Under the pieces are notes generated by a model. That model was not told the origin of the DNA, made no database searches, and saw only the letters and a list, made by a program, of their open reading frames with translations. The position numbers were made by a program, and so were the translations under genes. Below, in pieces: positions 536-43,701 of a stretch of DNA of 47,505 nt (the first letter of the stretch is position 1; each line of letters starts with the position of its first letter). The stretch spans positions 1 to 47,505 of the forward strand of contig JABANN010000248.1 of NCBI GenBank assembly GCA_013115125.1. The letters are read 5' to 3'. The DNA comes from Perkinsus olseni. Lineage: Eukaryota.

Positions 536-869
536 TACGATTAGGTAGACATAGTAGTAATAGAACAAAACTACCACTACCGAGAGCAACAACCTACCAA
601 CAACAGCAGCCCTACTACGAACAGTTATCACCTTTACCACAGTCAATGCTTGTCTCCCACTCGGACAATGGGAATGACTTCTTCAGCACCTACTGGTTGC
701 ACCTCCTGTTCACCAACCAAACCGCCCCCGGTCAGATTTATGATAAACCAAAGTCGTGGAGGGGTGTTGAGAGTATCTTTGAAACGATTACTATTCGTGC
801 TTCGACACACAATAGGCAGCAGTCACTCCTGGGAATCGAACCCGAGGCCTCTCGAATGACCACCCAGTA

Positions 870-2154
870 TTAGTCCTCCTCCATCTGTGCCTCCTCTTCC
901 TCTTCAATAGACTTCTTGGCACGTTCTTGGAGTTGATGGATCTCCGCTTGGGGAATCTGCCCGCCCGAAGGAGATAAACAATGAGATACCGAATTAATAT
1001 TTTTACCATTTTATGCGACTTTCCGGTGGCATCGCACAACACAGCCATCTCCAACTCCAAGTCCTTGTCCTGAAAAAAACGTGTGCCCCGACCTATTGTG
1101 TATCTTCCACGGTTGAACAGAAGATTCTCTCACCTTCTCGTCGTGGCACTTTTGGATTATCTTAGCTGCGCTGAACTTCGCTTCCTCGCAGGTCAGATTC
1201 ACATAAGGCACGGCTGCGTCGGTTGGCAGAAGTTTCTCAATTTCAGTGCGCCCGGCCTGACGACCCTTCCCTGATAAATACGAGGATGTTGAAGGCTGCG
1301 GTAAACGAAATAAAAGATACTCGTACCCACAGCGATCCCCTTGAACTTGATAGCAGTTCCACTGGGGTCGATGCCGTAGAGTTGAGGCCCCTCAACTTCA
1401 TCGTAAACGCCCAGGAGGACTGTGCTGCCGAATGGTCGAACTGAACAAAATGAACTCTCCTGCGATTTGAACCCTAGACCTCCTGTACGACACATTGACC
1501 CTCTAACCCGTTCCGCTATTACCACTCCAGTAAAGCGTGTACATGTGCATGAACATAGCTACGCGATCCGCCAGCACCGGTCCAGGGATGGGAGTAGAAT
1601 ATACTTGCTTGTACTGAGAGCACTCCTCCCGAGCTGAAACAATAAACACATGCCGCATCGACCGAGCCGACTAATTTCAAAGAGCGTTTTGGATTGAACG
1701 ATTTTCCCCGCACACTTCAGAATGAATTTCGCTTCCAAAAATAAAACGACGATGAGTATAATCATCATGACTACCTCTCTCAACGATCTGCTTAGCATCG
1801 GCAACAAGCCCAGAGATGGCCAGAGTGGCGTGACGATCCACTGGGAATATCCTCTTGTTGGTACCCGGCACCAACATCTTCGATAGAAGAAATTTCTCGT
1901 TGGCGAAGACGATCTGAACGGGAAGGGGGAATTGCGGTATACAATAGCGATGGAATTTATTACTCCGTCCTTGCAGCACAGAGCGAGGGCAGTGCCGCCG
2001 TTATCAACTGCCTTCTGAGCGTACTCGATCTAAGACAAACATGTGTTAGCCCGTTCTGTATCCTGCATGCTTCGAGCTAAGATACCTGGAAGACCCTTCC
2101 ATCAGGGGAGTACGTCGTAGCCGAGAGATCGTATCCAGAGCCTGTTCCCGACAT
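870..2154 (-). CDS. PSMA3: 20S proteasome subunit alpha type-3 (alpha7), multi-exon
   Basis: Exons read MSGTGSGYDLSATTYSPDGRVFQ, KMLVPGTNKRIFPVDRH...GLVADAKQIVER, VRPFGSTVLLG...GPQLYGIDPSG and ELEMAVLC, ending in the acidic tail AKKSIEEEEEAQMEED* (TAA at 870-872). Confidence 0.95.
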
Positions 2155-2535
2155 TATTCCGCAAAATTAATCAAAACACTGCCTCAGATCGCTAGTTGAT
2201 CTCCGATCCCGGATGAATCTTGGGGTTGAGCGTGAAAGATACAAAACAGGTCGAGGTACGACCCAAGAATCGGCCGGCTCTGACTTGGAGTTGCACCACA
2301 ACCAAGACATCGCATTTCAGAGCTGCATCAGAGATGTCGCACTGAGTTTTTAAGCCGCACCACCATACTCCGAAGTGCATTACAGAACTCTAATGCGCGC
2401 GGGACGGAGACGCTCGGGATGAATCCTAATCGATTAGAATGGCGAGCGCTGTTGACAGCGCAGAAACGACGAGTATGAGATCCACATTCACGTCTAAGTG
2501 CTTTCCCTCAGGGATCCTGCCGACACTCAGTTGAC

Positions 2536-3989
2536 ATGGACCTTCCAGACGGCTTCATCGACCCTTCCGACGGTAGTCGTGCTGCTGTTCATATCTTGAG
2601 GTCGACTCATGCGTTTCTCAGGTGGGAAGAATCAAAGCGCCTTCACCTACAATGCTGAGCGAGTGATAGGTAGGCTGCGGGCCTTGGTCTACCCTCCCCT
2701 TGTTCAGTGGACTATTCTGTCTCTCAGGGAACGGCTCCTTTGGGATAGTCTATCAAGCGACAGTCGTGGAGACTCAAGAGAGCGTAGCCATCAAAAAGGT
2801 CTTCCAGGACAAACGATATAAAAATCGGGAACTGCACATAATGAGAGAGCTCAAGCATCCCAATGTTGTAAGTCTATCATCATCAGTAATCCTCAGTCCG
2901 ATTGAGGCGCACCTTCAGGTTACTCTGAAGCACGCGTTTTACACGAATGGTGAGCGGCCCGATGAGCTCTTCCTCAACGTCGTTATGGACTACATGTCTG
3001 ACACAGTTTATCGAGTGGTGAAGTTTTATAGCAAACAAAAGCGTCAAGTGCCGTTGCTGCTGTGCAAGCTGTATGCCTATCAAGTATGCCGTGCCCTCTC
3101 CTACTTACACAACCTTGGCATCTGCCATCGAGACATCAAACCACAGAATCTTCTGGTCTGCGCTGATACACATCGAGTTAAGATATGCGACTTTGGCTCG
3201 GCCAAGAGGCTCATCCCCGGCGAGAGTAACGTCTCCTACATCTGCAGTCGCTACTACCGTGCGCCTGAGCTCATATTCGGTGCCACAGAGTACACCTGCG
3301 TTATCGATACTTGGAGCGCTGGTGAGTGGCAAAGGCTTCCGTGACTCCGAGTGCCCTTGGTACGCTCAGGTTGTGTACTCGCCGAGACCATACTCGGGTC
3401 TCCGTTATTCCCCGGTGAAAGTGGAGTTGATCAGCTTGTTGAAGTTATCAAAATACTAGGTGAGTTCGGAAGGCGTTCGATGTTGTTAACTTGCAGTCAG
3501 GTACCCCCACGAAGGAGCAGTTGCTGGCGATGAACCCGAATTACACCGAGTTCAAATTCCCTCACATTAAGGCACATACTTGGCAGAAGGTTTTCCGCTC
3601 GAAAACGGCACCCGATGCTATCGAATTCGTAAGTGAAGTTGCTCGTCTTGAGGGCGCTAGTGTCCTCCTGTCAGATCGGTTGTACGTTGAGATACGACCC
3701 GGCCGAGCGGATCACAACAACGCAATGTTTGACGCACGTTTTCTTTGACGAATTGCGGTTGAAGTCCACTACACTACCCCCGGGCATTTTCGGGAGGGAG
3801 GCCCCCGAAAAGCCCCTCCCTCCTCTGTTCGATTTCAGCCAGGAAGAATTAATCGCATTCAGCCGGTTACCGGATGGCAAGAAGTTGGTCCCTCAATGGT
3901 ACACTAAATGCAGCAGTTTGGAGGCTCCACCAGTTGTGGCCGGATCGAGTAGCTCATCCTCGTCATCTTCAAGTTCTGCTTTCTTTTAA
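2536..3989 (+). CDS. GSK3: Glycogen synthase kinase-3 / shaggy-like Ser/Thr kinase, multi-exon
   Basis: Motifs [77 protein letters not shown] and [11 protein letters not shown]. The start at ATG 2536 is inferred because the upstream ATG at 2439 does not splice in frame. Confidence 0.95.
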
Positions 3990-12312: not shown

Positions 12313-15300
12313 ATGCGTCTTTTTTCTCTTCTACTGGTCTGTACGGCTATCCAGCCATCACAAGCCTTCATAGAGGATATTCTCAACCAAGCGTTCGGAG
12401 GCGCTGGCGGAGGGGGAGGGGGAGGCTTCCAATTTCAATTTGGTGGTAGTAATTAGCATCAACGGGCTCTCGAGGGGCTATGGGCGAACGTTGATAGGGG
12501 CGGCGAGCGCCGTAGATTCCACCGGATTGTTTGAGGATCATCGTTGATCGAAGTATATATTCGCGTCGCTCCGCTGTAATTAGGTGGAGGTTTTCATCAG
12601 CCGCAACAACCTCGGTACAAGCCGGTTAAGTTCCCTAAGGGGGTGACTTCGAAGATACACAAATCGATGGAGTGGATGAAAGGAACGGAGTGGATGTGGA
12701 ACGAGTGAGTCGAATAGTTTTCACCCATTTTTGCAATTCCGTTCTGACCAGTCCCAAGCCGATCGTAAGGTGAGGACTCGAGCGTCTATAGGTCGTTATA
12801 GGTTTAAGAAATTCTATAAACGGGACCAGTTCGTGCAACTCACAAATCCAAATTTTTAGCATGTTTTCTGTGTAAACTTTTATCCAACCCCACGATGGAG
12901 CGCACATCTGCAACGATGAGCTAAGATACTCTTTTTCTCGGCTGTGCGTCACAGTCATCCAACCGACCCTTCCACCGTGCTGTGAGCTACTCTGTGTCAA
13001 GTTCTATGGCTAGGGTGTGGGTCTGCTCATGAATCGGTTTCGCCAGCGGTGGCGTTGGTACGGCGATCGCTCTCACGTCCGAATGCCTGTCTGGTCGTTA
13101 CTGGTATTCGGTCGGTGATGTTTCAGTTGGGAGAAGGTTCGCTTCCAGTCGGATGGGATTTTTGTGGCCCCGACTGAGGAGTGCCATCAGCCCCAGGCTA
13201 AACAATGTAAATGGAGCGCTGATAAAGACGGGAATATTTATATAATGTGGGGGAAGTAAGTTACGGATGGAGTGGTATGGAAGCTTCAATAAACGGCGAA
13301 TGATCCTGTCTGTGCCCAATCTGATTTGATCGGAAAGTGCAATAGTTGAGGCGGAGAATTTAAACGAGGCATTTGTTACGAAGCGATTAGTTAATACCAT
13401 AACATTCGTAAATTATTGGTTTCTATCGGAGCTGGTTTCCCGCAGGAAGTCTGGGCTACACGAGGTGAAGGCTGATCACATGCCAGACGTGAATGATGAT
13501 GATTTCGAGTTGGAGTTGCCCAATGTACGGAGTGCGCGCATGGCTTAACGATAGGGCCTGTTGTTCGGCATTCGAGAGGTCCTTGGTTCAATCCCCGGCC
13601 CCTCCACTTTCAGATCTCCTTGAGCGGAAAGAGGAAGCGAGACGGTGCTCCCCTTCATGCAGAGTTCGTCCAGGTTTTCGATACAGAAATACAGGATGCC
13701 CGGAGAGATCTGTAGGACCGTTTTCTTTCATAATCGATCGAGATGGCGCGCGCTACTTGCACTCTCTCTAAGATACGGAGATCTAGGCTTGGAGCCGGGG
13801 GCAGATGTGAGTACGGTGAAGAAAGCGTTCAGGAAAATGTCTATTAAATATCACCCGGACAAGACCGGAAATGGTGAGTGTCGGATGCGGGGATCGAACC
13901 GGGGTCGTCATCGGGGAGAGCGCGTCGGTTGCAGATCCGACAGCACATCGCAAATTCACGCGGATAGGAGAGGCTAATGAGATATTATCGGATCCGGTAG
14001 TATCCAAATCGATCATCGGGGCGCGCGCGATCGTTCTGCATCTGCAGGCCAAGAAATTCCTATACGACATGGGAGGCATGGAGTCAGTGAGAGCCATGGA
14101 GAAGGGGGACATACCGCGAGGCGAAGATGGTCATGTCACCTACCCAGTACCGCTGGAGAAGCTGTAAGGGTCTTCAAGAAGTACGTTGAGGAATTGCGAG
14201 AGAGCAAGATTTTCAGGTATACTGGTTCTAAGGAGCATGTGAGGATCAATCGTCGTGTGGTCTGCACTGGATGCCGACAAAAACCGGATCTCGAGAAGTG
14301 CCGAGGGTGCGGGAAGTGCCCGGATGAGGTTAAGATGGTCCAACAGCAGGTGGGTGGATATCTAAGGGTATCTTCAAATCTTCGCTGTGCGTAAATTGGA
14401 TGAGAGTCACGATGTGTGGATCAGGTCGGGCCTGGGTTCTTCGTTCAACAACAGCAACAAGTGCCGAGTCGGGAGAGATGCAAAAATGAGGATACTGAGC
14501 TCGACCTCAACATCGAGAAGGGGATGATGGATGGCGAGCAGGTGGGGGAGGATACTCCGTATGAATCACAGGGAATGGAGGTTGTTATTACCCTCTGTGG
14601 TTTGGCAGTATTTTTCGTCATTTTGGCGTTCTCTGAGTGGTCGTTGTATTCGGTAGGATGGCCTGTGGACTCTCTCGAAATCACACAGTAAAGCTGGATG
14701 GTGGAGGGTTCTTGCTCGGTATTATGTGCCGCATGCTTCAGTCAATTTCTCAATCACCCCATTAGCACGCACGAGTGCTTCCATTTTGCGTGACAAGTTC
14801 GAGCGACAAATTTGAATTGAAATATCTTTCTCGTGCTTTCAGGTTGTTTTCGAGGGAATGGCTGAACAGCGTCCAGGACAGATCCCCGGTAATTTAATAT
14901 TTACCATCAAACAGACCAGCGACCAGAGGTTCATGCGAGAGAACGGATACGATTTGCGGACGGCAACGCAGATACCCCTGAAAGAAGCCCTTCTGGGCTT
15001 TGACAGGTCCATGGCCCACTTAGACGGCCATCAGGTGACGCAACGGATTCAGTGGTTCGCAAAGATGAGTTTCCTAGGTGCGCTTGGTGAAGCAGCCGGG
15101 TGAGGTCTGTCAACCTTTTGAGGTTATGAAGATCCCTGGGGAGGGGATGCCCCATAAAGTGGAGGGCGGCGGCCATAGTGACTACGGAGACTTATATGTA
15201 ACGCCGCTTCGCTCCGCTCTGTTTTTGGTGATCATGGTGGATTCTATCAGGTTAAGATGAATGTTAAATTCCCGGAGTCGTTGACGGATGCACAACGAGA

Positions 15301-18718: not shown

Positions 18719-20248
18719 TCACCTAGTCGTCGGATCATCACAGACCTCAGCTCCACAGGACTGATCTCCTCCCTTGCAAACAGGGATATCCTTCCACCAT
18801 TTACAATAGGACCCGGGGCCGTTCAGCTCCGTACAGTAGGCATCACACTTGGCATTAGGCATCGAGTGCGCACCGGAAACGACAGGAGCAACAGTAGCGG
18901 CTCTTGGAGAGGACGTAGTGGTAGCAATGACAGGCTCCGTGGGCATCGAGACCCACGCCGGGGTCGTCACAGCTGCAACGCCATCGCAAGCACCGGGGCC
19001 ACAGGGCTGATCTCCACCGTGGCACACGGGCACTGACCTCCACCATTTGCAGTAGGAACCATCACCATTCATGTCCTTACACATCGAGTCGCACTCAGCA
19101 GAGGCCTCAGAGTGTGCTCCTGGGGGCAGCTGTGGGGCCTTGGGGGATGGCCACGTCTCGGACTCACACACGGAGGCATCACCACAAGGCTGATCACCAT
19201 GCTGGCACACGGGGAAGTTCATCCACCATTTACAGTAGGAAGTGGCGTCATTCAAGCTCTGGCACATCTTATCACACTCGGCATGATGCTGACCATCTCC
19301 ACTCGGCAGAGCAGGGGCTTGGCTGATGTTCACAGGCTGTCCGCAGACGTCGAGTGTACCGCAGGGCTGATCACCGTGTTGGCATACAGGGTTAGTGTGC
19401 CACCATTTGCAGAAGGAATTCTCACCATTCAGTTGAACACAGTAAACGTCACAAGTCTTCTGCACGACATCGTCAGGGGAGGTTGGGCTCGATGGCTCCT
19501 CTGGGCCTTCCTTAGGGGGGACGGGATCAACGGGCGGAACCGCAGGGGGACTTCCCGACTTGCAATCAGCATCTCCGCAGGGTTGGTCACCGAACTGGCA
19601 GACAGGGTCCACAAACCACCACTTGCAGAAGGAAGTCTCACCGTTGAGGCTCTTACAGTAGTCATCACACCCAGCGTCACCGCTCCTACCAGAGATCATC
19701 TCAGTGGTCCATGAGGAGGGTGCGGTAGTAATCACAACCGGTACCGAAGTAGCATCAGTGGAAGGCACCTCCCCGCTGCCGCAAGACTGACCTCCACCCG
19801 AGCAAGTACCATCACAGCGACTCGTCGGACCGTTCAGATACTTGCAGTACTCATCCCATTCGGGTGAATACTGTCGTGGCCGCGCCGTGAACTGAGGAGG
19901 ATTGCCGCAAAGTTCCATGCTGCCACACGGCTGATCACCGTACTGGCAGACGGGAGACTCGAACCACCACTTGCAGAAGGAGGCATCACCGTTGAGAACT
20001 TGACAGTAGCTATCGCAGGCCAACCGAAGCCTCTCGGTGTCCTCAGACGGGCTACTGGGGCCAACAGTCGACATCGCAGAAGGCTCGTCACCGCAGGCTT
20101 GGCCACCCTCGGAGCAGACCGTACCGGAGCAGACACTGTCGGGACCGTTGAGGAATTGGCAGTAGTCGTCCCACATACCAGACTCTTGGACTCGACGGGG
20201 GAAAGCGATTGAAGGAGCAAGAATGAGAGAAAAGATGAAGGCTTTCAT
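18719..20248 (-). CDS. Intronless secreted cysteine/tryptophan-rich repeat protein
   Basis: Signal peptide MKAFIFSLILAPSIA and eight Cys-rich modules (six CDxxCxxLNGxxSY/FCKWWxxxPVCxxGDQxCG plus two shorter variants) separated by P/S/T-rich linkers. Confidence 0.88.
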   Translation of the reverse strand: MKAFIFSLILAPSIAFPRRVQESGMWDDYCQFLNGPDSVCSGTVCSEGGQACGDEPSAMSTVGPSSPSEDTERLRLACDSYCQVLNGDASFCKWWFESPVCQYGDQPCGSMELCGNPPQFTARPRQYSPEWDEYCKYLNGPTSRCDGTCSGGGQSCGSGEVPSTDATSVPVVITTAPSSWTTEMISGRSGDAGCDDYCKSLNGETSFCKWWFVDPVCQFGDQPCGDADCKSGSPPAVPPVDPVPPKEGPEEPSSPTSPDDVVQKTCDVYCVQLNGENSFCKWWHTNPVCQHGDQPCGTLDVCGQPVNISQAPALPSGDGQHHAECDKMCQSLNDATSYCKWWMNFPVCQHGDQPCGDASVCESETWPSPKAPQLPPGAHSEASAECDSMCKDMNGDGSYCKWWRSVPVCHGGDQPCGPGACDGVAAVTTPAWVSMPTEPVIATTTSSPRAATVAPVVSGAHSMPNAKCDAYCTELNGPGSYCKWWKDIPVCKGGDQSCGAEVCDDPTTR

Positions 20249-20529
20249 GAGTACAAACAGAAGGAAACCTGTGAAGCACAATAGATCCCACCAATGCTAG
20301 TGCGAGTGCTACGACCCTCGTTAGGTAAGAGCATGAAAGACGAAACCGCCGACCTGACTCGGACGGTTTCGAAATGACATTATGATATGTCGCTCGCCTT
20401 AAGGCTGAAGGTGAAACGGTCGGAGACGCCTTCCCAAGAATTGCCAGCAACGACAGGCAGAAAGACAGTGGAGCAAATGTAACAACACAGTGGTAATGGT
20501 ACAGTTAATAATGGACGTTAATACAGGCT

Positions 20530-25264: not shown

Positions 25265-26338
<1,074 letters not shown>

Positions 26339-26659
26339 TCAGTGGACAGTCTCGCTACAGCTGATAAAAGCGCGCGCCATTCTAATCGATATATTTTCTT
26401 GCATCCTATCCTTTACTTGCAACGCACTTGAAGAGATTTTTTTATCTTGCCTCCTCCTCCTTCCTTCGACGCGCACTGTCAAGGCCGTGACACGCTTCCG
26501 CGTCTACTACGACCTTTCATTGACCATCCGACCCGTCCTGTCACCCTGGGTCATCACAGATATCAAAGATACGCATCTGCGTGCTATCGCTGGACAGGGC
26601 CGCCCGGGTGAGTGTCTGAATTTTACGACGGGGGTTTACTTTTGTAAGTTAACTAAATA

Positions 26660-29600
26660 ATGACGACGAGCGACGCCGGTCCCCCTACGAGTGCCGCGGC
26701 CTCGGCAGAAATGGCTAAGAAGAGTTCGGGCGCTCGTAAGACGAATCTTGGCTGTGCGTGAGTATCTTCGAGTATCCTTAGTCCGACTTCGATACGAAGT
26801 TGTATACGTATCTTCTGAAGACGGTAAGAGCATGCTTCAACCTCGGATACTCTTATCAATACAGGAGCTCATCCCGCCAGTGAACTGGTGGTCCCCGAGA
26901 CGACGGGAGTTGGTATGACCAGTGGCCAAGGTTGGATATCCAAAAGATTCCCTACCTACCCACAGGTTAACCTGTCTTATACCATGATGCAATGATGGTA
27001 TCTTTTTAGATACTCATACTTGAGCTGGAACGTCGTAGTATCATCAACCAGATGCAATTCCTCAGTCATCAAAGCGCGATATCGACGAAGTTGGAACTGG
27101 TAGTAACGGAGTGGGCAGCAGCAGGCGCCAGGGTCGAACCCCTTCAGTATGTGTCCGTGGAGGGGCCTCAGACGCCCTACGACCCCGTCCAGGATCCCGA
27201 TGGTTGTGATTTTATACAGTCCATACCCTTCAGAAGGTTGGGGTATCTTTCTCTAGACTCTAACGAGAAGAGTAATCGGGAATTCTGTGTTAAGCACGCT
27301 TCAACCTCGGATATCAGGTCAATGGTTGGCTCGGGAATTGAAGTCTGTCTTCGTTGACTGCGAGGCAAGATTCATCCAAATCAAATTACACAAATGTCAC
27401 GTTAACACCCTCAACCTCCAGTCGCAAGTTGTAGTAGATGATGATTCATTATGTTGCTTTTGAAGGCCGTCCCTTCAGGGCCTTATCGCGGTCAATATTC
27501 TCGGCAATTATCTTGACCCACCACCACCGCCGCCACCCGTTTTGCCCTCTGAGGATGCCAGTAGTTGGTTCGTGTGCATGCGTGCAATACCACACCATTC
27601 GCAGTTCCTCCACCAATGGTGGCCGTCCCTGTCCTACACAGTGCGGATGCCGAACCCGGGGCGCATCAGAATTCCGGCTGGCCTCCCTTGGCGGTATGGA
27701 CGGCGTGCCAAGACACTCGGTGAAAGGATATACGGCCTCTTTAGGGACCCGAAGGCCTCGGGTTCGATTCTATGGGCGAGCATTTTGGCTTGGAAGTTCC
27801 CCCAGCTGTGTACCATCCCCAACCTTCAACTGGGGACTTCTCCCCCCTAGGGCCCGAGGGTATCTTCGGGACCGAGGCTGACCCGGAAACGCAAAAGCAA
27901 ATCGATCAGCTGCTGTCATTAAAGCAGCGGGCTGTGGAGGTTATATTGTCGTCGCCGGGATTCGAACCCGCGACCTCTATCGCCGCAGGTGGAGGACTAC
28001 GACGAGGCGATGCGACTGAAAGATGAGATAACCCGGTTGCAGGGAGTATCTCGGGCGTTGGCTGAGCTGGAGCGGAGTAAACGTATCGCTGTACAGGAAG
28101 AGGACTATCCCCGGGCCAAGGCATTGAAGGAGGAGATACACCGCCTCAGGTCTGCTCACCATCGCAGAACCCTCTACCACAGTGTAACACTCAGGACCAA
28201 CGGGGCCGCGGCCCAGCCGCCTCCTCGGCAATCACAGACTGTGTATGAGCCTCGGTACCAGTACTACCATCAGCATGGCGGACATTCGTTCCAAACTCCC
28301 TTGTCGGGGGTCTCTGGCCGTACCACCCCAATGGGGTTCAGTGGGGCTGATGGTACTACGGGCCTGATGGAACCCACGATCCTTCCTCCATCATCAGCAT
28401 ACAACGGGAGCAGCAGCAGCAGCAGCCGGCCAGTGAACACACATGATGAGATGCCGGCCGTCGCAGGTCAGCCTGTCGTGACTGGCATGGGTTGAAGTAT
28501 CCTTCAGGTGGCGGTGGGAGTAGTCAGCACAGATCCATCCTAGAGGCCGGACCAAACTCCCTTCCGGTACTTTCCTTCTTCTTCCGTGTCCGATCTCGAG
28601 TCCTCAGTCGGAGTACCTCGGCCAAGATCCCTATTATGCCGTAGCAACAGCCAACACAACGCCACCAACAGCAGCAGCTCCGATAGAGACGGGAGGCACG
28701 CCCAAGACCCCACCCTTGGGAGGGGACCGGGGACCCCATCCGGACCTGCCCGACGTCCCCAACTCCGAGGCCTTGCCGGCTGCGGGTAGGGGAGGATCTG
28801 GGAGGGCCCGTGGTCAATGGTGGCTTCAGAAATACTCCCCCCAGCGGTGGCCCATGAGGCCCAAGGGGCTCCAATGACCCTGTTGGGTGAGTATATAATT
28901 CGGTGTATAGTCAGCAAGGTGAGTTACGAATGGAGTGGTATGATAATAATTAGCACACATGCGCCCGCAGGATTGGAGAGTTCGCGAGGCGGGGTTCATC
29001 CAGGCCGAGCATGACCTCGAGAAGGGCGTGTGGGCTGATAAAGGGGACGCCGTCTCGGGCGCCCACGCTGCCATCTATGCCGTCCGAAAATGTGTAACTG
29101 ATAAAATTGCAAATGTAGGCCCTTCTCCTCCCCATCCCTGCCGTTACGCTCAGCTCTGTAGGTCTTCTTGCCATGCATGAGGCTCCTCCAAGCCGCAGCC
29201 AACAGTGTCTTTAACGTGGTGGCCACACCCATCTGAAGGGAGGCTCCCTAGCCCTCCCCTCAGATGGTATCGTCGATGCCCCGCGGCTCCCGTGACCTCC
29301 ACGCCATCCTCGAGCCCCTCATGCCAGCCCTCACCGATCGGCTGTCGGACCCCAACAAGCGCTGCCAGGAGGCCACACGGAATGCTATCCTCGCCATTGC
29401 CGTCAATGTTGGCCCTTCCTTCGCCACCCATCATGTACTCGGCAGCACCACTGAAGGGAAGGGGAGCGACTTTGGTAGGTATTGAAGATAACCTCCCGTC
29501 GGGGGGCGGGTGGGAGGGCTGCTGCGGCGCCGTCCCTCCTGCCCAACAAGGCCTTGTCGGCTCGCTGTGACGTCCTGCAAGCTGTGATTGACACCTGTGG

Positions 29601-31070: not shown

Positions 31071-31295
31071 TGAGATGCATGCTTCAACCTAAGATACGGC
31101 TGCTGCAGCAGCAGCAGCAGCACCTCAACAAGTTGCCCTCCCAGCCCATCAGCAAAGCACCTCGCCAGACTCATCGTGGAGGTACGAAGGAGGAGCTCAT
31201 GCAGCATCTTCCGAGTCGGGTCCGAGTCCGACCAGTTGTCATCGAGGCTCTCTGCCAATATACCCGACTGATGAGCGAAGGGAATCAAGAATGAT
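31071..31295 (-). pseudogene. Orphan duplicated copy of one DNAAF5 exon plus flanking intron sequence
   Basis: Close, co-oriented match to 35260-35477 (SGILAESLDDNWSDSDPTRKMLHELL vs SGILAEGLDDYWSDSDPTRRMLHELL). Confidence 0.75.
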
Positions 31296-31659
31296 GTTAA
31301 CAGCCATGGTAGAGGCTGCCCGACAAGTTACGGAGGTGTGGGGCTTCCATCGCGGCCATGACAAAGTCAATGAACTTGGCCGACGGGGTTGTTTACGTAG
31401 CAGGCACTCCGGTGTCCCTCGAGAAAGAGACCCCAACTGATATCGGCCCATCCGGCACCGCAGTAGCAATGACCTTCCTAAGGCTAGTTGTCAATACTGT
31501 GCACACCTCTTCATATACGCGCGTTGCTCGACACCTATTAGGGGCGGTGCATAGCCAGCCTATTAGTATGGCGCACGAGGGACTGATGGAGACACCAACA
31601 CAAGGCGGTCCATCATCCAACAACATCAACATCATAACGACAAGTCGTGAACAACATCT

Positions 31660-33430: not shown

Positions 33431-33447
33431 CCGGCGGTCCGCTACTA

Positions 33448-33697
33448 CAGGGTGCCGACTTAAAAAGGGCAGACCCCTCATGAATTGTCCGTGCGGACGA
33501 GTTGAGAGTTGTAACGCACACCAATCGAAAGCTCTCGTCGAGCTCTACGCAACCCCGTTCTCAGCGTCGTCTCACTCGAATTGCCCATGGAAGGGCACGC
33601 CGCTGTGAAGAATGATCGACGCTTGAGGAAGTCGACGGAGGGCATTTCTGTGACTCGGCGGTGATGAGGGGTCTGCCCTTTTTAAGTCGGCACCCTG
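33448..33697. mobile_element. 250-bp MITE of the Tc1/mariner superfamily
   Basis: Perfect 34-bp terminal inverted repeats CAGGGTGCCGACTTAAAAAGGGCAGACCCCTCAT (33448-33481 and 33664-33697), flanked by TA on both sides. No transposase ORF. Confidence 0.92.
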
Positions 33698-33924
33698 TAG
33701 TTACGACTAGGTAAAACCGCTGGTGCGAGGCCTTGAGACTGTTTAACGCGGGATCTCTCGGAGCCGAGTTGGTGAGACCAAGACGACAAGAAAGCCTTCG
33801 GTGCTCAGAGTTCGGTGCCGCACGTTAACGGATTTATGATCGTCCTCGACGGTTCCTCGTACCCCATACTTCCCAACCCAACAACACGTTACGGTCATCG
33901 AGACGGAAGCACAAAACATGGCGG

Positions 33925-36900
33925 TCACGATGATGATGATAGTCCCCTATTGAGGAGGGAGAGGCAGAGGTCAGGTTGGAGCGAGTTGGCTGCTGCTGTA
34001 TCAACCTCCGCTTCGAATGCACTCCCGCCGGCTGCCGACGCCTGACGACCATCAACACTCTGCCTTGCCCGTCTAGCCGTTACTGCCCACCTCCCTCAAT
34101 GCAGCATACACGGCCTTGGACAGCTGCATGTTGCTGTCGTCCAAATGCACGAACAGAGCTCGGACGATGTAACCTGAGGAGCCCTAGGGCTGCTACAGCA
34201 GCAACCGAGAGGCCCCTACCGAAGACGCTGTTGGACAGGGCCTTCATCGTCCCAGGCCGGCTGCTGAGGACCTCCATCAGCACCTCTAACGCTCGGCACG
34301 CCAAAATCCTGAAAAATCAATATTCCCCACGACAAGAGCACAACCCTCCGCAGACCTTATCTCATCAACACTATCATCGAGGCGCTTGAGCAGGTCTGGG
34401 TAGCACTCCCGAAGGACCTCCGCGTCGAACTCGTCCAACTGCTGGTCATCGGCCATCTTCCCAAAAATGTCGATGATGATGACGGTGGTGGCCAAGTGAC
34501 GATTGTCCGGCGTGAAGGCGTCGTCCAGGCTGCTCCTCAGCAGAGGAATCTGCCAACGCCTCCACGACCAAGGGGACGGAATAGGACGGGCCGTACCAGC
34601 TCTTCCAATATCGACCTCATCCAGTTGGCTTGGACAGCGGGTAAGGTCGTGTGGAGGGCCAACAGCGAGGCCTTCCTTATTCTGGTATTAGCCTAGAGAG
34701 GGTTACTCCGAGGAGGGTATCAGGGGAGATGGCAGAGTAGAGACGATGCTATCAATGGAACCAGCGGCCGAAGAAGCGGGAAGCATCGTGGGGATGAATT
34801 CAATGCGAAGTGGGGCAGAATACACACTGTGACACTATGCAAATGGCAGCAGCCCTGATCATCACACAAGGGCAACCCGCCCACCTGGCCGGGCCGCCAG
34901 ATCAAGTTCGGTAGGAGAACCCCTGTGACGAGACTAACAGCAGGAGGACTTGCCCTCGGCAGATCGACGGTAGTTGATACACCTAAGAAGCAAGACTACG
35001 ACCCGGGCACAGATCAGTCGTCCTACAGCCGATAGTCAAGTGGTGTGGCTCGGTGTCCGGGGGTGTCTGAGAAGCCTTCTTCAAGGCCTCTAGTAGGGGC
35101 CTGAGGGAGGGACTTTGACGGGTGCCGGCCGCCCTACTCACCCTCCTCCCTCCTCGGATGCTCTCCTCGCTACGTCATAGACGCTCTCGATGACGTCCAC
35201 ACGACAGCTGGGGGTACAGCGTTCAGGGTCGGATTGGAAACAGAGCATCTAATGTTGCATGAGATGCATGCTTCAACCTAAGATACGCCTGCAACAGTAC
35301 CTCAATAAGCTGCCCTCCCAGAGCATCACCAAAGCACCTCGCCAGACTCATCGTGGAGGTACGACGGAGGAGCTCATGCAGCATCCTCCGAGTCGGGTCC
35401 GAGTCCGACCAATAATCATCGAGGCCCTCTGCCAATATTCCCGACTGATGATGAGAGAAGGGAATCAACATTGATGAGATGTTCAGCTTGCCGCCTCACC
35501 AACTGTACGTCAAAGTACATGTCATAGACGGCGGCCGGCGACGTCCCTTCCCGGGCAGCCAGCAGAGCGATGCAGTCTCCCACCTGACCAGACGGGTATG
35601 TCGGCGCTCCCACAGGCGAGAAGGACCTCAGGGGAGTCCGAGGACGAGGCCACACACTGCAGCAGCAGACCGAAGAGGCGAGTGACCAAGGTGTCGGACA
35701 GCCCTGAGGATACACTGCTGCTGCTGTTGTTGCCCCCTTGACGAGTGCTGACCACCTCCCTTCAGCTGGAGCATCGCCTTCAGCACACGAGGTACGATTG
35801 TGATGGTATCGGAGGAGACGGTGAGCGCAGCGTGGATGACGTCGAGAGCGGTGGAGAGGACGTCCGTGGTGATGCTACGGCCGGCGTGGACTTCAATAGC
35901 ATCACCCAACAGCAGGAGGAGGTCCTGCCGACAGAACAGCGACAACAACCACGCAATAGACGACCGAGTCGTTCTGCGGCACGTCCAAGATGAGGAAACA
36001 GATAACGAAAGACTATTGTCTTCATCTATATCGATTTATTGGTACTCAGAGCGCTCCAGTAGCACCCACTGGTCGACCATGGGTGAACCCACCTCAGCCC
36101 CGGCCCGGGAAGTGATTCTGTAGTTATTGGTGGTCCTGGCAGCCCCCACCACTCGCGTCGTCACGCGCCCCAGGTTCTCTTCATTCCAGTAGTCGCCATC
36201 GCCTGAGCGATGATCAACAAGAGTTGGGCAAGTTGTGGTATTAGAATGTCCACGCACTGGCAGGGGCATCAGGAGTATCATCAACTGTACAGCCCAAATG
36301 CTTAGCCATAATATTAACTATGACCCCAAATGCATTGACGCCGGCACGATCCACGATAACGCCGAGCAGGGTGCCTGAACGACCACGATGGTCGGCACCT
36401 CCATGGCAACCAAGATGGTGATGATACAGTCCAGACGAGTGGTGAGGGGCAGCTCTCGGGAGGAGTAGAATGATAGAGTTATGACGAGCGTCCGGTCATC
36501 GTGAGGGGTTTGCAGACGAGCACGTTTTCAGTATATTCATCAGTCTAAACCTCCGATAAGACGAGACAAAGTGACGGCTTTGTAATGGTAGAGCTCAGAT
36601 TCTCTTCAGCCACATGCCGCTGACCTACGGCAGGCCTTGGTAACCCTCGCCTCAGCGTCAACATCATCATCTCTGATGGCCCGGTAGATGTGGATGATGA
36701 GCTCTTCGATAAACGGCATAGCCTTTCGGGTATCCGCCATCAGCATTACAGCCTGGGAGAGGTACCGGGTTCGATCCCCAGGGACGGCATTTTTCCAACT
36801 CACTGTGCACATCCTGATGATTTGCTCTCTGACACCGGTGGAGGCAGTCCATTCCACCATACCATTCAACGCGAAGCGAAGCAATGGTTCTGTGAAAATT

Positions 36901-39423
36901 GTCACGTACCTGAGGTTAAAGCATGCAAGATGCAAATCAGGTCAAGTTTGAGCTTGCGCGTCGCACCATCGGGATTCATCCGACTGGCACGCCTCTTCCT
37001 GCGTCCCTTCAACAGACCCAAACCTAGCCAACTCCGGCACCCTGCTCGGACAAGGGGGGACCTCCAGAAAATCCCCAAGCAGAACTCCTCCCTCTTTCGG
37101 GAACCCTCCCGAAAGGTCTTCCGTCGCTTCACGCTTACACAGGGCCGCCTTCCGGAGTGCATCCAAAGCACGAGTCGACACTAAAACGAACAGTGGAATG
37201 CCGCCGTTCGCGTGGGTCGATGATAACTAACCCAGATCAAACTGGTACCGTATATCAACAGGAAGATTATCCGGGTCCCATGGGCCAAGGCGATGCCTTC
37301 ATTCGTGATCACTTGCTTTTACTCTACAACTACAACTACCCCAATGGGATTACGTCGCCCACTATCGCAATGCTGCTACGTACGACGATCCGCAGCAGCA
37401 GCAGCAGAAGGCCTGTGTGTCATCACGCCCTCCGATGATGTGCGAGCCGACCTCTCACCTTTGTCATCTCCCACCATGACCATGAGTTGGCTCAAGACTC
37501 GACCCTCCCAATCCGGCATTAGCGTGGAAATCATCTCTCGAGCGGCCTCCTTCGAGGAAGCATCTTCCTCGTCCAGCGTAGTGGCCGCTGCCTTCAGACT
37601 GAACAGGTTCGAAGATTCTTCGCTGTGCGCAAGATACGCCCTACTTCTGACCATCCAACTTCGCTCCGCTAACCAAAATCCCCTCCAAAAAATCAACAAC
37701 GGTTGCTCGGACCTAAAAGGCCTCCTCAGCGTTGAGGAAATGCAAGATTGCAAGATACCTTCTCGTTTCTGTCCCTCACTAGACCATCATCAGCAGCCGC
37801 GCCCCCTATCGCGGCGATGATCTCCTCAGCGTGAGCGAAAAACAACAACTGGGGTACTGGCGGACCCGCCGAGATCAAACAGTCTGGCCCTGAGCACGCA
37901 TATCTTTGCGCACAGCAAAGATTCTTAGAATAAGCAAGAGCACCTCTCTTAAGCTTGAATGTTGCACGCATCAACATAAGATTCCTAATAGCCATCAGGG
38001 TTCGTTGACGGACCTGCCGGAGGACCTCAGCCCTCCCTCCCTCCCCCCTTGCCCACCCTCCACTGCTGATGTCGGGTATTCCGCACCAACGCCGCGACGA
38101 GGGTCTCTCGGGCGGCCGAGCAGCTCAGTACCTCAGTAAGCATGGACGACGCTCGAGCAGTATCAACGTTCGCTCTTCTGTCGCCTACCTTGTCTCCCTG
38201 TAGGGTCTCCGCCATCACTCCCACAAGGTCGCATGCCTCTTTCTTGACATCAGGACAGGTATCTTGCATTGCCATACCACACGTTTCGATAATCTAAGAG
38301 AATTCCGACTACGATTCCGCTAGCCCGCGATCTAGACAGCAGGAAGCGACGCAAGCGAACGACCTCCACAGACAGAGGAGGTCAACGTCCGGAGGGGGGG
38401 GCAAGAAAACAACAATCTCTTGAGCCCCAAGCGATTGCGAGATCCACTTGGAAGTCCCCTAGTCTGGCCACCACGCGACTCCACGTAGCACGCAAAGCAA
38501 GATCGCGGAACTAAGTTGGTCGGAACACTGCAGACTTCCCCGCACGAGGAATGTCGATCGACAATTACCGAGTTCAGGAGCACTACCGAGACTGAAATTA
38601 TCGGGTAAAGAGTCAGGACCCAGAAGCGTTCTTGAAACTCAGGGAAGGCATGAGTCTACCGCTCGTCCAGATAGATCCTCACGTCGTTCGAACTCTTGCT
38701 GATCTCCTGTCCACCAGACGAGCGTCGCAGCAACGCCCTGAGCAGGCCGATGAGCTGACATCGAAGCTCCTCGCAAGACTCCTGGCCACCCCTGATGCGA
38801 CTACAGATGGCTGCGATGAGGACCTGACCAACGACCAAGAGGAGGAGGAGGAGGAGGAGGAGGAGGAGGAGGAGGGGGCTGAGGTCATTCGACAAGTCCA
38901 TCAAGGAACGCTGATTGTTATCAGGAATCTTAGGTTGATGCGTGCAACATTCAAGTTCAAAAGATATGCTGTGTGCGAGATACTACCGAGGAAGTTTCGT
39001 CGATCGTCTCCGACTTCAAAAAATTAATAAAATTCATCATCACCTCGATGGCAGAAATCCGGACCTACGGGAAGGCATAACGATCGGGGGAAAGATACTC
39101 CGCAATCGCGACCTCGTGGACAAAGTGCAAGGGTCAACCTAAGATTCCAAACAACCCACCTTCTCCACTGGGTCAGCGAACAGTCTAGCAACAGGTTTGT
39201 GAAGATCCTCATAATACAGTCTCGACAGAGCCGCCAGCGCGTCTTCACTTGCTGGTGCAACGAGGCGTATCTTTCTCTCATGCTTGCACATCATACGTAA
39301 GGTTGCCTCCACCTCCCTCTGGATGCTTAAGATTCCTTGCAGCCGGAGCCGCCTGTCGGGGTCCGCAAGGCAATTGATGCTCCTCCTGAGACTTTGCGAT
39401 AGACTTTCGTATGATAGCGCCAT
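33925..39423 (-). CDS. DNAAF5: Dynein axonemal assembly factor 5 (HEATR2)-like HEAT-repeat protein, multi-exon
   Basis: LRRSINCLADPDRRLR, RLFADPVEK, ESCEELR, DTCPDVKKEAC, RNTRHQQWRV and YPDLLKRLDDSVDEIR. The last exon ends NRGLSSSS* (33925-33927). Confidence 0.82.
36757..36794 (+). repeat. Representative isolated tRNA 3'-fragment (T-arm/B-box) in an intron
   Basis: GAGAGGTACCGGGTTCGATCCCCAGGGACGGCATTTTT, with no D-arm or anticodon arm upstream. About 11 similar copies occur in the window. Confidence 0.75.
37941..38968. repeat. Pair of 76-bp inverted repeats in two DNAAF5 introns (37941-38016 and 38893-38968)
   Basis: Manual ungapped alignment gives 13 mismatches in 76 nt. Each copy contains the 28-bp element. 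Confidence 0.85.
38839..38874. repeat. (GAG)12 microsatellite
   Basis: Directly visible. On the minus strand it forms the pyrimidine tract before a DNAAF5 acceptor. Confidence 0.9.
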
Positions 39424-40188: not shown

Positions 40189-43100
40189 TCACACGCCGTT
40201 TTCAACGGCGACGGTAATCAACGGCAGTGGAATCGTCCCTACCTCCGCCGAGGGTTGTTGGTTCATGAAACCACCGGTAATGTAGTCATCCTTCTCCGCC
40301 GCTCGGTATCTGAATACAACAACAGCACTAATTTCGTGGCGCGTGACGCTGGCTTCTATGTGTACTCGGCCGAAAGCTGAGCCACAGTCTCTCGGGCATG
40401 GTCGAACTCCTCCAAGTCATCAGCGAATATCGGTTCCTACAGAGGGAGCAGATCTTTCAATCGAACGACCCCGGGTCGATCCCCGCACCTGACGATATTG
40501 TTCAAGGAAAGCTCCACGACTCCTTAATTTGTCGTACTGCTTCAGGCACCTGATGATAAGAGTAATACCAGAAATTCCGGAACTCATCAAAGCCGGATAA
40601 AGATACGTCGATGGTATCTTCGATACGTGTGAGTAGCTCAATAATCTCAGGCAAGATCAAGAATAAGATTAGGCGGCGTATCTTAGGTCGATTATGGCCA
40701 AACAAAGAATATCTTTGGCTACGAGGCGCACACTGGAAGAGGTGATGAATGCCCGAGGCGAAGCAGCCTAGCTCTGACGTGTGGTTCCTTGAGAGGTCCC
40801 CGGTTCGATTCCCAGTGACGACACCTATCGAATAATGTATTAATGGAGGTATGGTTGGCCAGCATCAGTCCAGAGACTTTATGAGCATGTTGAACATAAG
40901 GGGACTGCCTCGCCAACGCCACTTGTATGCTTGCCGGACCCCATCTGATAAATAAAAATACCGCTACCGGGGATGGAACCTGCGACCTATCTACTGTATG
41001 AATCTTGCCAGTCTCCTTTCTCTAATACGCTGCAAGCTCTTATGAACCGACGCCGGGTCAACTTCACCCTAGAGAAACCAGAATCGATCACGTGATCGAT
41101 TATATCGATCAGCTAACCTGTATAATATTCAGAACAGATATATAGGCCCCCCTTCTTGTCGACGCGCTGACCATAAGATTCTTCTGCTGCAACAATCTGA
41201 AAAATGCATCAAAAATAAGCGGAGCGAAGCAGATGAGATGCCCCCTCCTCCCACCGTCTCATGACGTCCATGACTGTAGTCTTGCGGACTGTCGAGTGTG
41301 CTTGATGGACGATCGAGGTATTAGCGGTTAAAGGGGTGTAACTAAATGTGTAAAAATACCCCGACTAGGGATCGAACCTGCGCCTGTCGATAGGGAGCAT
41401 ACAATGCATACTGAGTGATGGGAGAGTAATTCCTCCTTATCACTCACAGGACTATATACTGGACCGAAGGAGGGGCGGAAAATGCGGAGATGCCACCGCT
41501 GGGGATCGAACCAGGGACCTCCGGATGCTTACCCTGTCATTAAAAAGTGGCATCTTGGCGTAGGAATCAGACTGGCCACGATTGACACCATATCGTTGTT
41601 CATATAGCCAGGGTATCTGAAGTTCAAGCTTGCAAGATACAAAGAAGGTCAAGGCTGTGCCTTAGTGTGGTAGTGCTCGCTGACATCACGGTTGATACCA
41701 GTTGGTTCGTCTGCGCGAAACTCGGGGTGGCTGAAAGAAAGATTCGCCATAATCCCCAGGACAAAAACCTACGGAGAATCTCGAAATTTATTTCATGCAT
41801 GGATCGACCTAAGATACGGTTCATCAGCCATAATGAAGAGTGGGTAGGAGGGGCAGTATGCAGGGACACTAACGATATCGGGATTTTCCCCAGCAACTCC
41901 CTAGGAGCAATACTGAGCTACTTCCCTGGTGAGAAAGCTGCCAGTGAAGACAACGACTCCTGGCGACTTCCTAGAGTGGGTACAGCAGAACTGTGGCGCT
42001 GATCGACTTAAAATTATAATCACCCAAAAATGAGTGCCCGCTTAGTTACTCAATTTCAGCCGATCAGCGGCGATACGATTGAGGGCTGTGTTATCCAGCA
42101 CCACCACTGCATCAGCATTCAATGCCAACCTGACCAGGACTAAATCTGAGCATACCGCTCCTTTCGTAACTCCCAACCTCTTCAGCGTCAACACTGAGTT
42201 GTAAGGCTGCACGACTACATCCGAAGTCTCGGTGAGCATCGGGAAGACGCTGTAAGTTTGCAGCAGCTTCTTCGGGTATCGATCGGAGAGGGTCTCTAAC
42301 AGGTAGCTCCCCATGCCCGATCCAGTACCTAAAAGATACCATCATCCAAAATCTTCGCGCTGCGGAAAATGATTCTCCGTCCCTAACGCTCATACTTCCA
42401 CTTTCATACTGGATAGCGGATGACCAACCGACCAAACAACTTCCCAGCGTTGAGGAAATGCAAGATTGCAAGATTTTCCCCCACACCTACCCCCTGCAAT
42501 GGAATGCAGCAGCATGAAGCCTTCAAGCGAGTCGCTGCCGTCCGCCTCGCGATCGATCATCTCACAGATCTCCTCCTGGACGGCCTCCGCCTGGGAATAC
42601 CCCTTCGCCCAATTGTTACCTCAACAACACTAATACACCGCCTCAAACCAACAAATCGATCATCCGGGCGCGCGCTACCTGCTCCACCGCCTTCCTTGGA
42701 CATGTAGATATTTTCTGGGTTATAAAGGTTCTTAAATTCGGAGGTTTGTATTTGATTTATCACCCTCGGCTCCAAATCGATCAGCAAGGCTCTAAGCAAG
42801 AGAACGTAGCCACCGACCCTCCCCACAGACCGGCGGCGAGAAGGGAAGAGATCGCACTACTGATGGCAGAATGACTAGGCCCAATTCCACGTCACCGAAA
42901 GAAATATCGCTTAAGTTAGTATTACTGAGTGTGGAAGAATCTTTTTTTGATACTGGCAGTATGTATGTTACTAACATAGTATCATAAAGATCATAACTAG
43001 TGTATGCCAATGATGTGCTAAGATATTATCGCTCACATGTTGAACAAAATTCGTAAAAAACGATGAAAAGCGGTGAAATTTTTCCCTGTTTCCTGGCGAA

Positions 43101-43701
43101 GATTCCTGGCCTGGTCCGGTCCGGAGCTGATACTAACAACGACCTCATGGTGGGAGGGGCAAGCAACAAGAGTGGTTTTAACATACGGCAGTTACCACCA
43201 CGGGACGAAACAAATTGCGTAAGTTTTGGTACGCACTTTTGGACCAGAGGAGATGAGCACGGCAGAGTAAACAGAGAAGAGGGATACAACATGCTTAGGA
43301 GTGACAGAGTCCTTCACTCTAATGACAGCGAAAATATTACTGCCTACACAGTCTGAACAGTGAACCGTGTAATAATACCGGTCCCAGGATTCGAACCGGG
43401 GACCTCCTTACCTGGGTATGTAATGCTCGTCATCGGCTTGGTAGAAGAATACATCTTTACGGTCCTCGGCTGGGGGCTGATTGGGAGGAGGCGGTCTCAG
43501 AATACCATCGGGGTCGATACCTGGTGAATGTATCTTAGGTCGACCCGTGAAAGATACGAAATAGGTCTCTTCCGAGCAGTCTCAACATCTTGAATACGAT
43601 ACACATCCCCTACCGTGTTCAGCACACAACTGCTGCCAAAATTCGCTGCCGACTTGATTGCCGCATTGTCCAACTTGAAGAGTGACAATCTCACGAGGCA
43701 T
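40189..43701 (-). CDS. TUBG1: Gamma-tubulin, highly intron-rich
   Basis: [98 protein letters not shown] and [11 protein letters not shown]. The exact 3' end is uncertain. Confidence 0.95.
43530..43557 (+). repeat. Representative copy of the dispersed 28-bp GTATCTT-N14-AAGATAC element
   Basis: GTATCTTAGGTCGACCCGTGAAAGATAC. Other 28-nt copies start at 2058, 2215, 24842, 36906, 38925, 39759, 40068, 41613, 43698 and 43883. Confidence 0.85.

Follow-up and report, generated by a model that had tools for sequence, protein, structure and literature searches.

A 32-nt unit that matches tRNA positions 42-73 recurs 13 times in the 47,505-nt stretch of Perkinsus olseni DNA analyzed here (the window), and 12 of the 13 copies lie in introns. 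What the fragments preserve is the 3' part of tRNA genes, in decayed form and in some copies with the T-run of a Pol III terminator. We lean toward the reading that old, mostly 5'-truncated tRNA-gene copies created or seeded introns in an introner-like process, which requires no present function of the units. The sample is a single 47.5-kb window, picked because the pattern is visible in it.

Inventory and anatomy of the unit

The original prediction had listed 11 tRNA T-arm/B-box fragments, and all 11 were found, with their places and strands correctly given; the copies at 27751-27782 and 44274-44305 are additional. A profile made from the 11 listed fragments recovers each of them (E <= 9e-4) and also detects the 12th unit, f12, through a match at 27751-27770 (E = 0.032). 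The 13th, f13, was spotted by eye in an RNA-confirmed intron and scores E = 15 with the same profile. The units and the introns that hold them are as follows.

821-852, minus strand: f1, sense, 14 nt past the stop codon of a proteasome alpha-3-like gene; the sole non-intronic copy
13525-13613, plus strand: 89-nt intron placed by a reading-frame join; f2 (13575-13606), sense, ends 7 nt before the 3' splice site
13874-13934, plus strand: 61-nt intron of a DnaJ gene; f3 (13879-13910, minus strand), antisense, its reverse complement beginning 5 nt past the GT
27720-27805, plus strand: 86-nt intron placed by a reading-frame join; f12 (27751-27782), sense, then TTTT
27940-27988, plus strand: 49-nt intron splitting a UVR motif; f4 (27947-27978, minus strand), antisense, 32 of the 49 nt
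36753-36803, minus strand: 51-nt intron; f5 (36758-36789, plus strand), antisense, which with TTTTT (36790-36794) makes up 37 of the 51 nt
40437-40488, minus strand: gamma-tubulin intron 13, 52 nt; f6 (40463-40494, plus strand), antisense, with the GT inside f6 and its last 6 nt overlapping the exon
40550-40824, minus strand: gamma-tubulin intron 12, 275 nt; f7 (40792-40823, plus strand), antisense, its start 1 nt beyond the intron's first base
40945-40994, minus strand: gamma-tubulin intron 11, 50 nt; 4 nt, f8 (40959-40990, sense) and a 14-nt T-rich tail ending in AG
41342-41532, minus strand: gamma-tubulin intron 8, 191 nt; two sense units, f10 (41491-41522) lying 10 nt in from the 5' splice site and f9 (41357-41388) stopping 15 nt short of the 3' splice site
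42792-43411, minus strand: gamma-tubulin intron 2, 620 nt; f11 (43376-43407), sense, 4 nt from the 5' splice site
44257-44355, minus strand: 99-nt intron, spliced according to RNA contigs; a whole decayed tRNA-like sequence, sense, with an A-box-like element (44328-44338), f13 (44274-44305) and a 17-nt pyrimidine-rich tail ending in AG

The B-box is enriched across the window: GGTTCGANYCC has 8 exact matches where about 0.3 are expected, and this number is reached in 0 of 100 sequences of a first shuffle set (mean 0.31, maximum 3) and in 0 of 200 dinucleotide shuffles of a second (mean 0.30). One-base variants of the box stand in the remaining 3 of the 11 listed fragments, and over the 13 units there are 8 exact boxes and 5 near-matches.

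When the 13 copies are anchored on one another, the information profile is about zero before position 42, rises at 42-43, peaks at the invariant tRNA positions and returns after 73 to background, with a weak T-run, reaching about zero past approximately position 78. The conserved columns are those invariant in tRNA (G46, C48, G53, T54, T55, C56, A58, and C61), and they stop exactly at position 73, so that the unit has a sharp end at the discriminator base. CCA follows none of the 13 units. The T-run claimed for three listed fragments is TTTTT directly at 36790, 40958, and 41356, and with the TTTT after f12 a run of 4 or 5 T directly after position 73 is seen in 4 of 13. The 5' reach varies, with f13 whole, f1, f2, and f10 extending to about positions 32-36, and the remainder to about position 42. 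From the remnants of the anticodon loop, f2 and f10 may be of Ala(AGC) type and f13 of Gly(UCC) type.

The copies are 34-84% identical to one another over 32 nt. This level of divergence marks them as old, and they give no sign of recent mobility. Diagnostic changes are common to pairs such as f3/f6 (81%), f4/f7 (84%), and f5/f7 (84%), and the units can be inferred to stem from no fewer than two or three source tRNAs or subfamilies.

None of the 11 listed fragments has a 5' half by ARAGORN, Rfam, or A-box pattern search, in agreement with the original prediction. The sole A-box coupled to a B-box at tRNA spacing is that of the decayed f13, where the A-box-like TGGTGTAGTGG lies exactly 32 nt upstream of the B-box, corresponding to standard positions 20-51. 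A-box patterns are not enriched in general (5 against 2.5 expected, with 25 of 200 shuffles reaching 5). These features bear on the proposal that the fragments are remnants of a tRNA-derived SINE. SINEs retain a 5' head with A and B boxes, to which an unrelated body and tail are added. The units share with tRNA-derived SINEs descent from tRNA genes, the B-box, and genomic dispersal, and the tracking of invariant positions to 73 upholds that part of the proposal which speaks of a tRNA-derived repeat. A canonical SINE was rejected, however, as 12 of 13 units lack the A-box head, stop at the tRNA 3' end with a short T-run beyond which no common body or tail is found, and show no target-site duplications.

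No complete tRNA gene was detected, which had been left to be confirmed: ARAGORN reports 0 genes, and Rfam gives no tRNA match at E <= 10 in the whole window or in three short stretches, one of which was cut at the starts of two units so that truncated matches were allowed. At a relaxed threshold ARAGORN returns 7 candidates, but 20 shuffled windows give 6.5 on average, so that the relaxed search is uninformative. A T stem of 5 pairs is formed in 0 of 13 units, of 4 pairs in 5, and of 3 pairs in 8. Folding of eight introns or intron parts gave z between -0.44 and +0.98 against shuffles, indicating no retained structure, with the folded ranges 36745-36795, 43352-43410, 13516-13613, and 40945-40994 differing from the final intron ends by 1-9 nt. 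Working halves of split or permuted tRNA genes, for which only the motif itself speaks, were rejected on these grounds (T stems, ARAGORN, Rfam, folding) together with the lack of an A-box excess, and their probability is close to nil.

The B-box also invites comparison with B-box-only TFIIIC sites, known as ETC in S. cerevisiae and COC in S. pombe, with which the units share a lone B-box consensus and no A-box. It could be speculated that a functional array of such sites serves chromatin organization or gene insulation, as a B-box without an A-box is found in 12 of 13 units, the B-box columns are the best conserved of the unit, and the sites are dense in one gene. The B-box is, however, invariant in all tRNAs, and copies from several sources would consequently share it without selection. 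Moreover, positions 43-48 and 70-73 and the T-run are conserved as well, while the box itself is changed at T54, G57, or C62 in 3 of 13 units. ETC and COC sites are intergenic, whereas the Perkinsus units are intronic, abut splice sites in both orientations, and carry additional tRNA features. We consider a functional array improbable, and the data can be explained without it; residual TFIIIC binding at the putative sites is possible.

Placement in introns and at splice sites

All listed fragments but the first were predicted to be intronic, and this is supported by exon mapping to public P. olseni gamma-tubulin proteins, by a split DnaJ domain and UVR motif, and by reading-frame joins. Six of them do lie inside gamma-tubulin, a minus-strand gene that extends from 43701 down to about 40360 and contains 13 or more introns. 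The first fragment is indeed placed just 3' of a gene, the identification of which as PSMA3 is weak (proteasome alpha type-3 match, E = 6e-4). Overall, 12 of 13 units are intronic (binomial p = 5e-6 at an assumed intron share of 30% and 0.0017 at 50%), 7 of them sense and 5 antisense, and they occupy 11 introns spread over 5 genes, all GT..AG.

RNA contigs confirm splicing for one of these 11 introns, that at 44257-44355, with the splice joint 44254/44354 present in runs X7 and X11. Within the one gene for which all listed introns are RNA-confirmed, 1 of 7 introns carries a unit. None of the 15 joints listed falls in gamma-tubulin, with 70 further joints beyond these 15. Gamma-tubulin introns 12 and 13 have no RNA-contig cover, to which no weight is given as evidence. 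In the DnaJ gene, the J domain stops at profile position 33, at the exon end beside the f3 intron. The 27940-27988 intron has the 6-nt exon repeat GTGGAG on both sides, and a donor 6 nt upstream is equally possible.

The relation of units to splice sites, which the original prediction had not noted, is close in both orientations. Sense units have either a T/C-rich trailer that continues to the 3' splice site or, 4-10 nt upstream, a GTAAG-type donor. In antisense units, the reverse-complemented tRNA 3' end is found 1-14 nt past the donor GT (in one intron the GT is within the unit), and the AG is preceded by the complement of positions 42-48, which is rich in pyrimidines. Five introns, of 49, 50, 51, 52, and 61 nt, contain a single 32-nt unit each and little else beyond the splice sites. 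That several introns of about 50 nt are almost wholly one unit suggests that tRNA-derived DNA seeded introns.

The main alternative is that dispersed tRNA pseudogene fragments landed passively in pre-existing introns, which later shrank; introns would be favored as landing sites because most of the non-coding DNA that a compact genome tolerates lies in them. Such lodging would fit the old and decayed state of the units, the one copy in a 3' UTR, and the other repeated modules that fill unit-bearing introns too. It would also fit the lack of target-site duplications, none of which was seen in the 11 unit-bearing introns (boundary slide 0-3 nt in all 11), and the hundreds of tRNA gene copies and the tRNA-gene-targeting transposons that Perkinsus has according to the consulted parts of one report (PMC3706591). 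An insert of 32-37 nt in a usual intron of 41-50 nt should, however, yield at least 73 nt, yet five unit-bearing introns measure 49-61 nt. Units in long introns also hug the ends: in the three introns of 620, 275, and 191 nt, the distances between the four units and an intron end are 4, 1, 10, and 15 nt (combined p = 0.0027, Fisher). Finally, 5' parts should likewise remain if whole tRNA genes had decayed at random, but only the 3' part is present. Passive lodging is the less likely reading in our judgment, though a serious contender.

Within the window, gamma-tubulin intron 11 can be aligned, beginning at the donor GT, to the first 59 nt of intron 2, and self-comparison shows no longer repeat extending from the units.

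A proposed origin of the introns

For intron gain from the units, which we infer from the arrangement of the sequences, the following course can be envisaged. DNA derived from tRNA genes would have inserted into transcribed genes, most simply as copies, truncated at the 5' end, of primary Pol III transcripts or of the ends of tRNA genes. The insert with its borders might have been removable by splicing as a minimal intron of about 50 nt, and could have survived for that reason. The copies would then have decayed, and some of the introns may have been enlarged by later insertions.

A broader version of the proposal can be put forward only tentatively. Perkinsus may have a class of intron-making elements from tRNA gene tails, inserting in either orientation a piece of about 35-60 nt, and a sizeable share of its short introns may be of tRNA descent. 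The piece would start at the variable or anticodon loop and continue through the discriminator base to the Pol III terminator, and it could conceivably be spliced at once because each of its strands has a donor-like start and a pyrimidine-rich end.

A different source of tRNA-derived DNA is provided by transposons of the Dada superfamily, whose flanking tRNA gene pieces can be moved by one-ended transposition (PMC3706591, in the parts consulted). In P. marinus, the targets of five families are the genes for tRNA-Ile, -Leu, -Gly, and -Tyr, and more than 500 copies of five types of tRNA gene are reported for this species (Kojima and Jurka 2013, PMC3706591); for zebrafish, the same sections describe the joining of tRNA pieces to foreign DNA in one-ended events. 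The units could accordingly be footprints or transduced flanks of such elements. Against this, the duplications in Perkinsus (TAGCTC) fall in the A-box, and nearly whole tRNAs or 5' pieces would be expected, whereas A-boxes are not enriched; nor is there conservation next to the units or a long repeat adjoining them. We regard this origin as highly improbable. The P. marinus system resembles ours in the genus, the abundance of tRNA genes, and the presence of tRNA-linked mobile DNA, and differs in consisting of near-intact tRNA genes and large inserted transposons, intronic relics of the 3' part not being described in those sections.

Relation to introners and wider occurrence

The origin of new spliceosomal introns is a long-standing question. 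To our knowledge, the known introner families are DNA transposons or of unknown origin, and minimal introns made from tRNA gene tails would, if the proposal is true, add a Pol III-gene source of introns and connect the intron load of Perkinsus with the unusual amplification of its tRNA genes.

Introners or introner-like elements occur in Micromonas, Aureococcus, fungi, dinoflagellates, and Amoebophrya (Farhat et al. 2021, PMC7789003, in the parts consulted). As described there, similar short sequences form or fill introns of unrelated genes in both orientations, with the element ends at or beside splice sites, and the Perkinsus units behave likewise. In contrast to introners, the units are the 3' part of tRNA genes (about 33-60 nt), their copies are diverged and not near-identical, and no terminal inverted repeats or target duplications were seen at them. 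Elements in Amoebophrya have non-canonical borders (PMC7789003, same sections), whereas every unit-bearing intron of Perkinsus is GT..AG. Our literature search, which covered the papers themselves, found no published description of tRNA-tail units in Perkinsus introns.

Related DNA is found in runs X8 and X9 (about 5% diverged), where the listed contig pieces cover 9 of the 10 units of the compared region. Runs X10 and X12-X20, whose shares are small, carry no weight in this comparison. Other contigs of these runs join 20- to 21-nt stretches of f4, f7, f10, and f11 to other repeated intron modules, and it follows that similar units exist elsewhere in that genome. A metagenome scan with a 17-nt intron module gave 22 single matches, the number expected by chance, and a 66-residue frame across gamma-tubulin intron 8 had no protein match at E <= 10.

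P. olseni is a parasite of shellfish, and the GAPDH of the window is 100% identical to a record from this species. Perkinsus, a culturable protist, lends itself to genome-wide counts, to cross-species comparison, and to tests of splicing. The units also mislead gene prediction, as the public P. olseni gamma-tubulin records seen are fragments, one of which is translated through a unit.

Anatomy of the tRNA-like units

All 11 fragments of the original prediction were found in place and on the strands claimed for them, and a profile built from these fragments re-finds 11 of 11 at E <= 9e-4. With two additional copies, 13 units of 32 nt, each covering tRNA positions 42 to 73, are considered here (f1 to f13):

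27751-27770, f12, retrieved by the 11-fragment profile at E = 0.032; by inspection its end lies at 27782, with TTTT next
44274-44305, f13, met inside an intron confirmed by RNA contigs; its profile score is just E = 15

In this single window, which was picked for displaying the pattern, the B-box pattern GGTTCGANYCC has 8 matches, whereas in 100 shuffles it averages 0.31 and never exceeds 3; in 200 dinucleotide shuffles the mean was 0.30, and none reached 8.

When the 13 copies are aligned gap-free with the T-loop as anchor, information content is approximately zero upstream, climbs from tRNA position 42-43, attains its full 2 bits at G46, G52, G53, T55, C56, and A58, and stays high over the acceptor 3' strand up to position 73, beyond which a weakly T-rich trailer gives way to background. 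The best-conserved columns are positions invariant across tRNAs generally, and the right-hand edge of the unit is the exact end of a tRNA gene. A run of four or five T's, the Pol III terminator, directly follows position 73 in 4 of 13 copies and CCA follows it in none, so that the source is tRNA genes or their primary transcripts and not mature tRNA. As the B-box does not vary from one tRNA to the next, copies of several sources share it without selection. A functional array of TFIIIC sites, one of the two readings first offered, is possible but not required by the data, and 3 of the 13 boxes are changed at conserved positions.

The claim that the fragments have no tRNA 5' half holds for those originally listed. 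A-box patterns number 5 in the window against 2.5 expected, with at least 5 in 25 of 200 shuffles; as the A-box is not enriched, the excess is one of the tRNA 3' part alone. The tRNA likeness of f1, f2, and f10 extends back to about position 32-36. Outside the original 11, f13 has an A-box-like head, TGGTGTAGTGG, 32 nt upstream of its B-box, a distance equal to that spanned by standard positions 20-51, so this copy is a tRNA-like sequence of full extent, though decayed.

None of the 13 copies is functional as a tRNA. A five-pair T stem is present in 0 of 13 units, and the predicted absence of full tRNAs is borne out by ARAGORN, which detects no tRNA gene in the window, and by an Rfam search for tRNA, which gives no match, short stretches included. 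At relaxed settings ARAGORN candidates are no more numerous than in shuffled DNA, and folding of the introns does not surpass that of shuffled sequences. The units likewise fail the tests for a split tRNA.

Host introns and splice sites

The tie between the units and splice sites is the new point of this analysis. As predicted, only the first of the listed fragments is non-intronic, with support from domain or motif splits and reading-frame joins, and six units lie inside gamma-tubulin (minus strand, at least 13 introns), two of them in intron 8 and one each in introns 2, 11, 12, and 13. The remaining units are placed as follows.

Units outside gamma-tubulin and their locations
f1: the sole non-intronic unit, 14 nt past the stop codon of a gene weakly matching proteasome alpha type-3
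f2: intron 13525-13613, 89 nt, from a reading-frame join
f3: intron 13874-13934, 61 nt, in a DnaJ gene whose J domain breaks off at profile position 33, right where the exon ends
f4: intron 27940-27988, 49 nt, splitting a UVR motif
f5: intron 36753-36803, 51 nt, from a reading-frame join
f12: intron 27720-27805, 86 nt, from a reading-frame join
f13: intron 44257-44355, 99 nt, seen as spliced out in the RNA contigs of runs X7 and X11

Splicing in RNA contigs is thus seen for 1 of the 11 unit-bearing introns. For 12 of 13 units being intronic, the binomial p is 5e-6 with an assumed intron share of 30% of the window and 0.0017 with one of 50%; eight units are sense and five antisense to the host gene. 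With regard to the source organism, a GAPDH frame without introns on the minus strand at 25268-26266 shares 100% identity with a Perkinsus olseni protein and 96% with one of P. marinus, and exons in the window match the public P. olseni gamma-tubulin fragments exactly. Those public records, P0006-P0010 (window 40360-43750), are fragments of 241-287 residues, and the P0009 translation reads straight through intron 8, unit f10 included; gene prediction evidently fails at the gamma-tubulin introns.

Five unit-bearing introns measure 49, 50, 51, 52, and 61 nt and hold one 32-nt unit apiece, with little else besides splice signals; the other six RNA-confirmed introns of the neighboring gene are 41-50 nt long. 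In antisense copies, the reverse-complemented tRNA 3' end begins 1, 5, 7, or 14 nt past the donor GT, and in gamma-tubulin intron 13 the donor GT falls within the unit, while in the two shortest antisense-unit introns the pyrimidine-rich complement of positions 42-48 stands directly upstream of the AG. Among sense copies, f8, f10, and f11 have a GTAAG- or GTAGA-type donor 4-10 nt upstream, and in f2, f8, f9, f12, and f13 a T/C-rich trailer leads into an AG 7-23 nt past position 73. From the donor onward, gamma-tubulin intron 11 (50 nt) can be aligned with the opening 59 nt of intron 2. For the four units of the long introns (620, 275, and 191 nt), the distance to an intron end is 4, 1, 10, and 15 nt (Fisher combined p = 0.0027 against uniform placement of four units in three introns). 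The main rival explanation, in which tRNA pieces lodged passively in pre-existing introns, accounts poorly for the 49-61-nt introns, for these positions at intron ends, and for the missing 5' parts.

Age and possible origin of the units

Pairwise identity across the 32 nt ranges from 34 to 84%, and some pairs have diagnostic changes in common (f3/f6, 81%; f4/f7, 84%; f5/f7, 84%), so the copies are old and form subfamilies. In runs X8 and X9, about 5% diverged from the window, 9 of 10 units of the compared region are covered among the contig pieces listed. Other contigs of these runs have 20- to 21-nt stretches of f4, f7, f10, and f11 connected with further repeated intron modules, so similar units exist elsewhere in that genome. 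The age of the copies suits passive lodging, as does the lack of target-site duplications, none of which was seen at the units.

No longer repeat was found adjoining the units. Of the proposal that they are remnants of a tRNA-derived SINE, descent from tRNA genes stands, given the conserved invariant positions, but the units fail the tests for a canonical SINE. Like introners, elements that create introns, they are similar sequences forming introns of unrelated genes with ends at splice sites; the near-identical copies expected of a recent introner burst are not what we observe. In the main texts of the literature searched, no description came up of introners derived from tRNA or of tRNA-like sequences in introns of Perkinsus, and in the available part of PMC7789003 Perkinsus is a comparison species only.

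The data are read most economically as minimal introns that arose, in an introner-like way, from tRNA-gene-derived DNA. Such DNA, mostly without its 5' part, would have been inserted into transcribed genes and kept where splicing could remove it; the copies would then have decayed, and some introns would have grown through later insertions. Both the 5' truncation and the fixed 3' end at the terminator are what would result if a primary Pol III transcript had been copied starting at its 3' end. A link to Dada transposons as background is possible, as those of Perkinsus target tRNA genes according to the accessible portion of PMC3706591; however, the A-box insertion sites stated there do not predict 3' parts alone.

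Other repeats in the window

A second repeated intron module, GCTTCAACCTAAGATAC, has 15 matches at no more than 3 mismatches, versus 0.05 expected. Usually it belongs to a unit of about 28 nt with palindromic ends, placed at a 3' splice site or close to one, and in other contigs it occurs within about 30 nt of tRNA-like units. A third module, AGCGCGCGCC followed by 6 nt and ATCGATT, has 6 matches versus 0.08 expected and begins 2 nt past the donor GT in gamma-tubulin intron 3.

Positions of the second and third modules
GCTTCAACCTAAGATAC, 17-nt matches, both strands: 2069, 24853, 26834, 27298, 31081, 35270, 36906, 37968, 38925, 39131, 39635, 40068, 41613, 41801, 43530
Variant of the GCTTCAACCTAAGATAC module: 37722-37756, 42440-42474
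AGCGCGCGCC module: 2428-2450, 13732-13754, 14007-14029, 22672-22694, 26369-26391, 42654-42676

Two further gamma-tubulin introns have unusual borders. Intron 7 (41617-41660, minus strand, 44 nt) is apparently GC..AG, as keeping the conserved protein sequence requires a GC donor, and its acceptor is the AG of a GCTTCAACCTAAGATAC module. Intron 5 (about 42130-42177, minus strand, 48 nt) has the 7-nt AGGTTGG across both borders, which leaves its placement free to shift over 7 nt; this duplication-like footprint is absent from the tRNA-like introns.

Larger repeats are also present:

18719-20296 (minus strand), a 525-residue frame of repeated cysteine-rich units with a 102-nt DNA repeat (six copies detected) and no match in Pfam
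31071-31296 and 35260-35476, a duplicated 229-nt segment (85.6% identity), each copy opened by intron module B
37939-38047 and 38862-38970, inverted repeat arms of 109 nt, 81% complementary and spaced 814 nt apart
33444-33701, an element of 258 nt whose 38-nt terminal inverted repeats are perfect

Inside the last element, contig depth summed at single places (33496) reaches 834-2673 across four runs, and the element looks like a high-copy miniature transposon.
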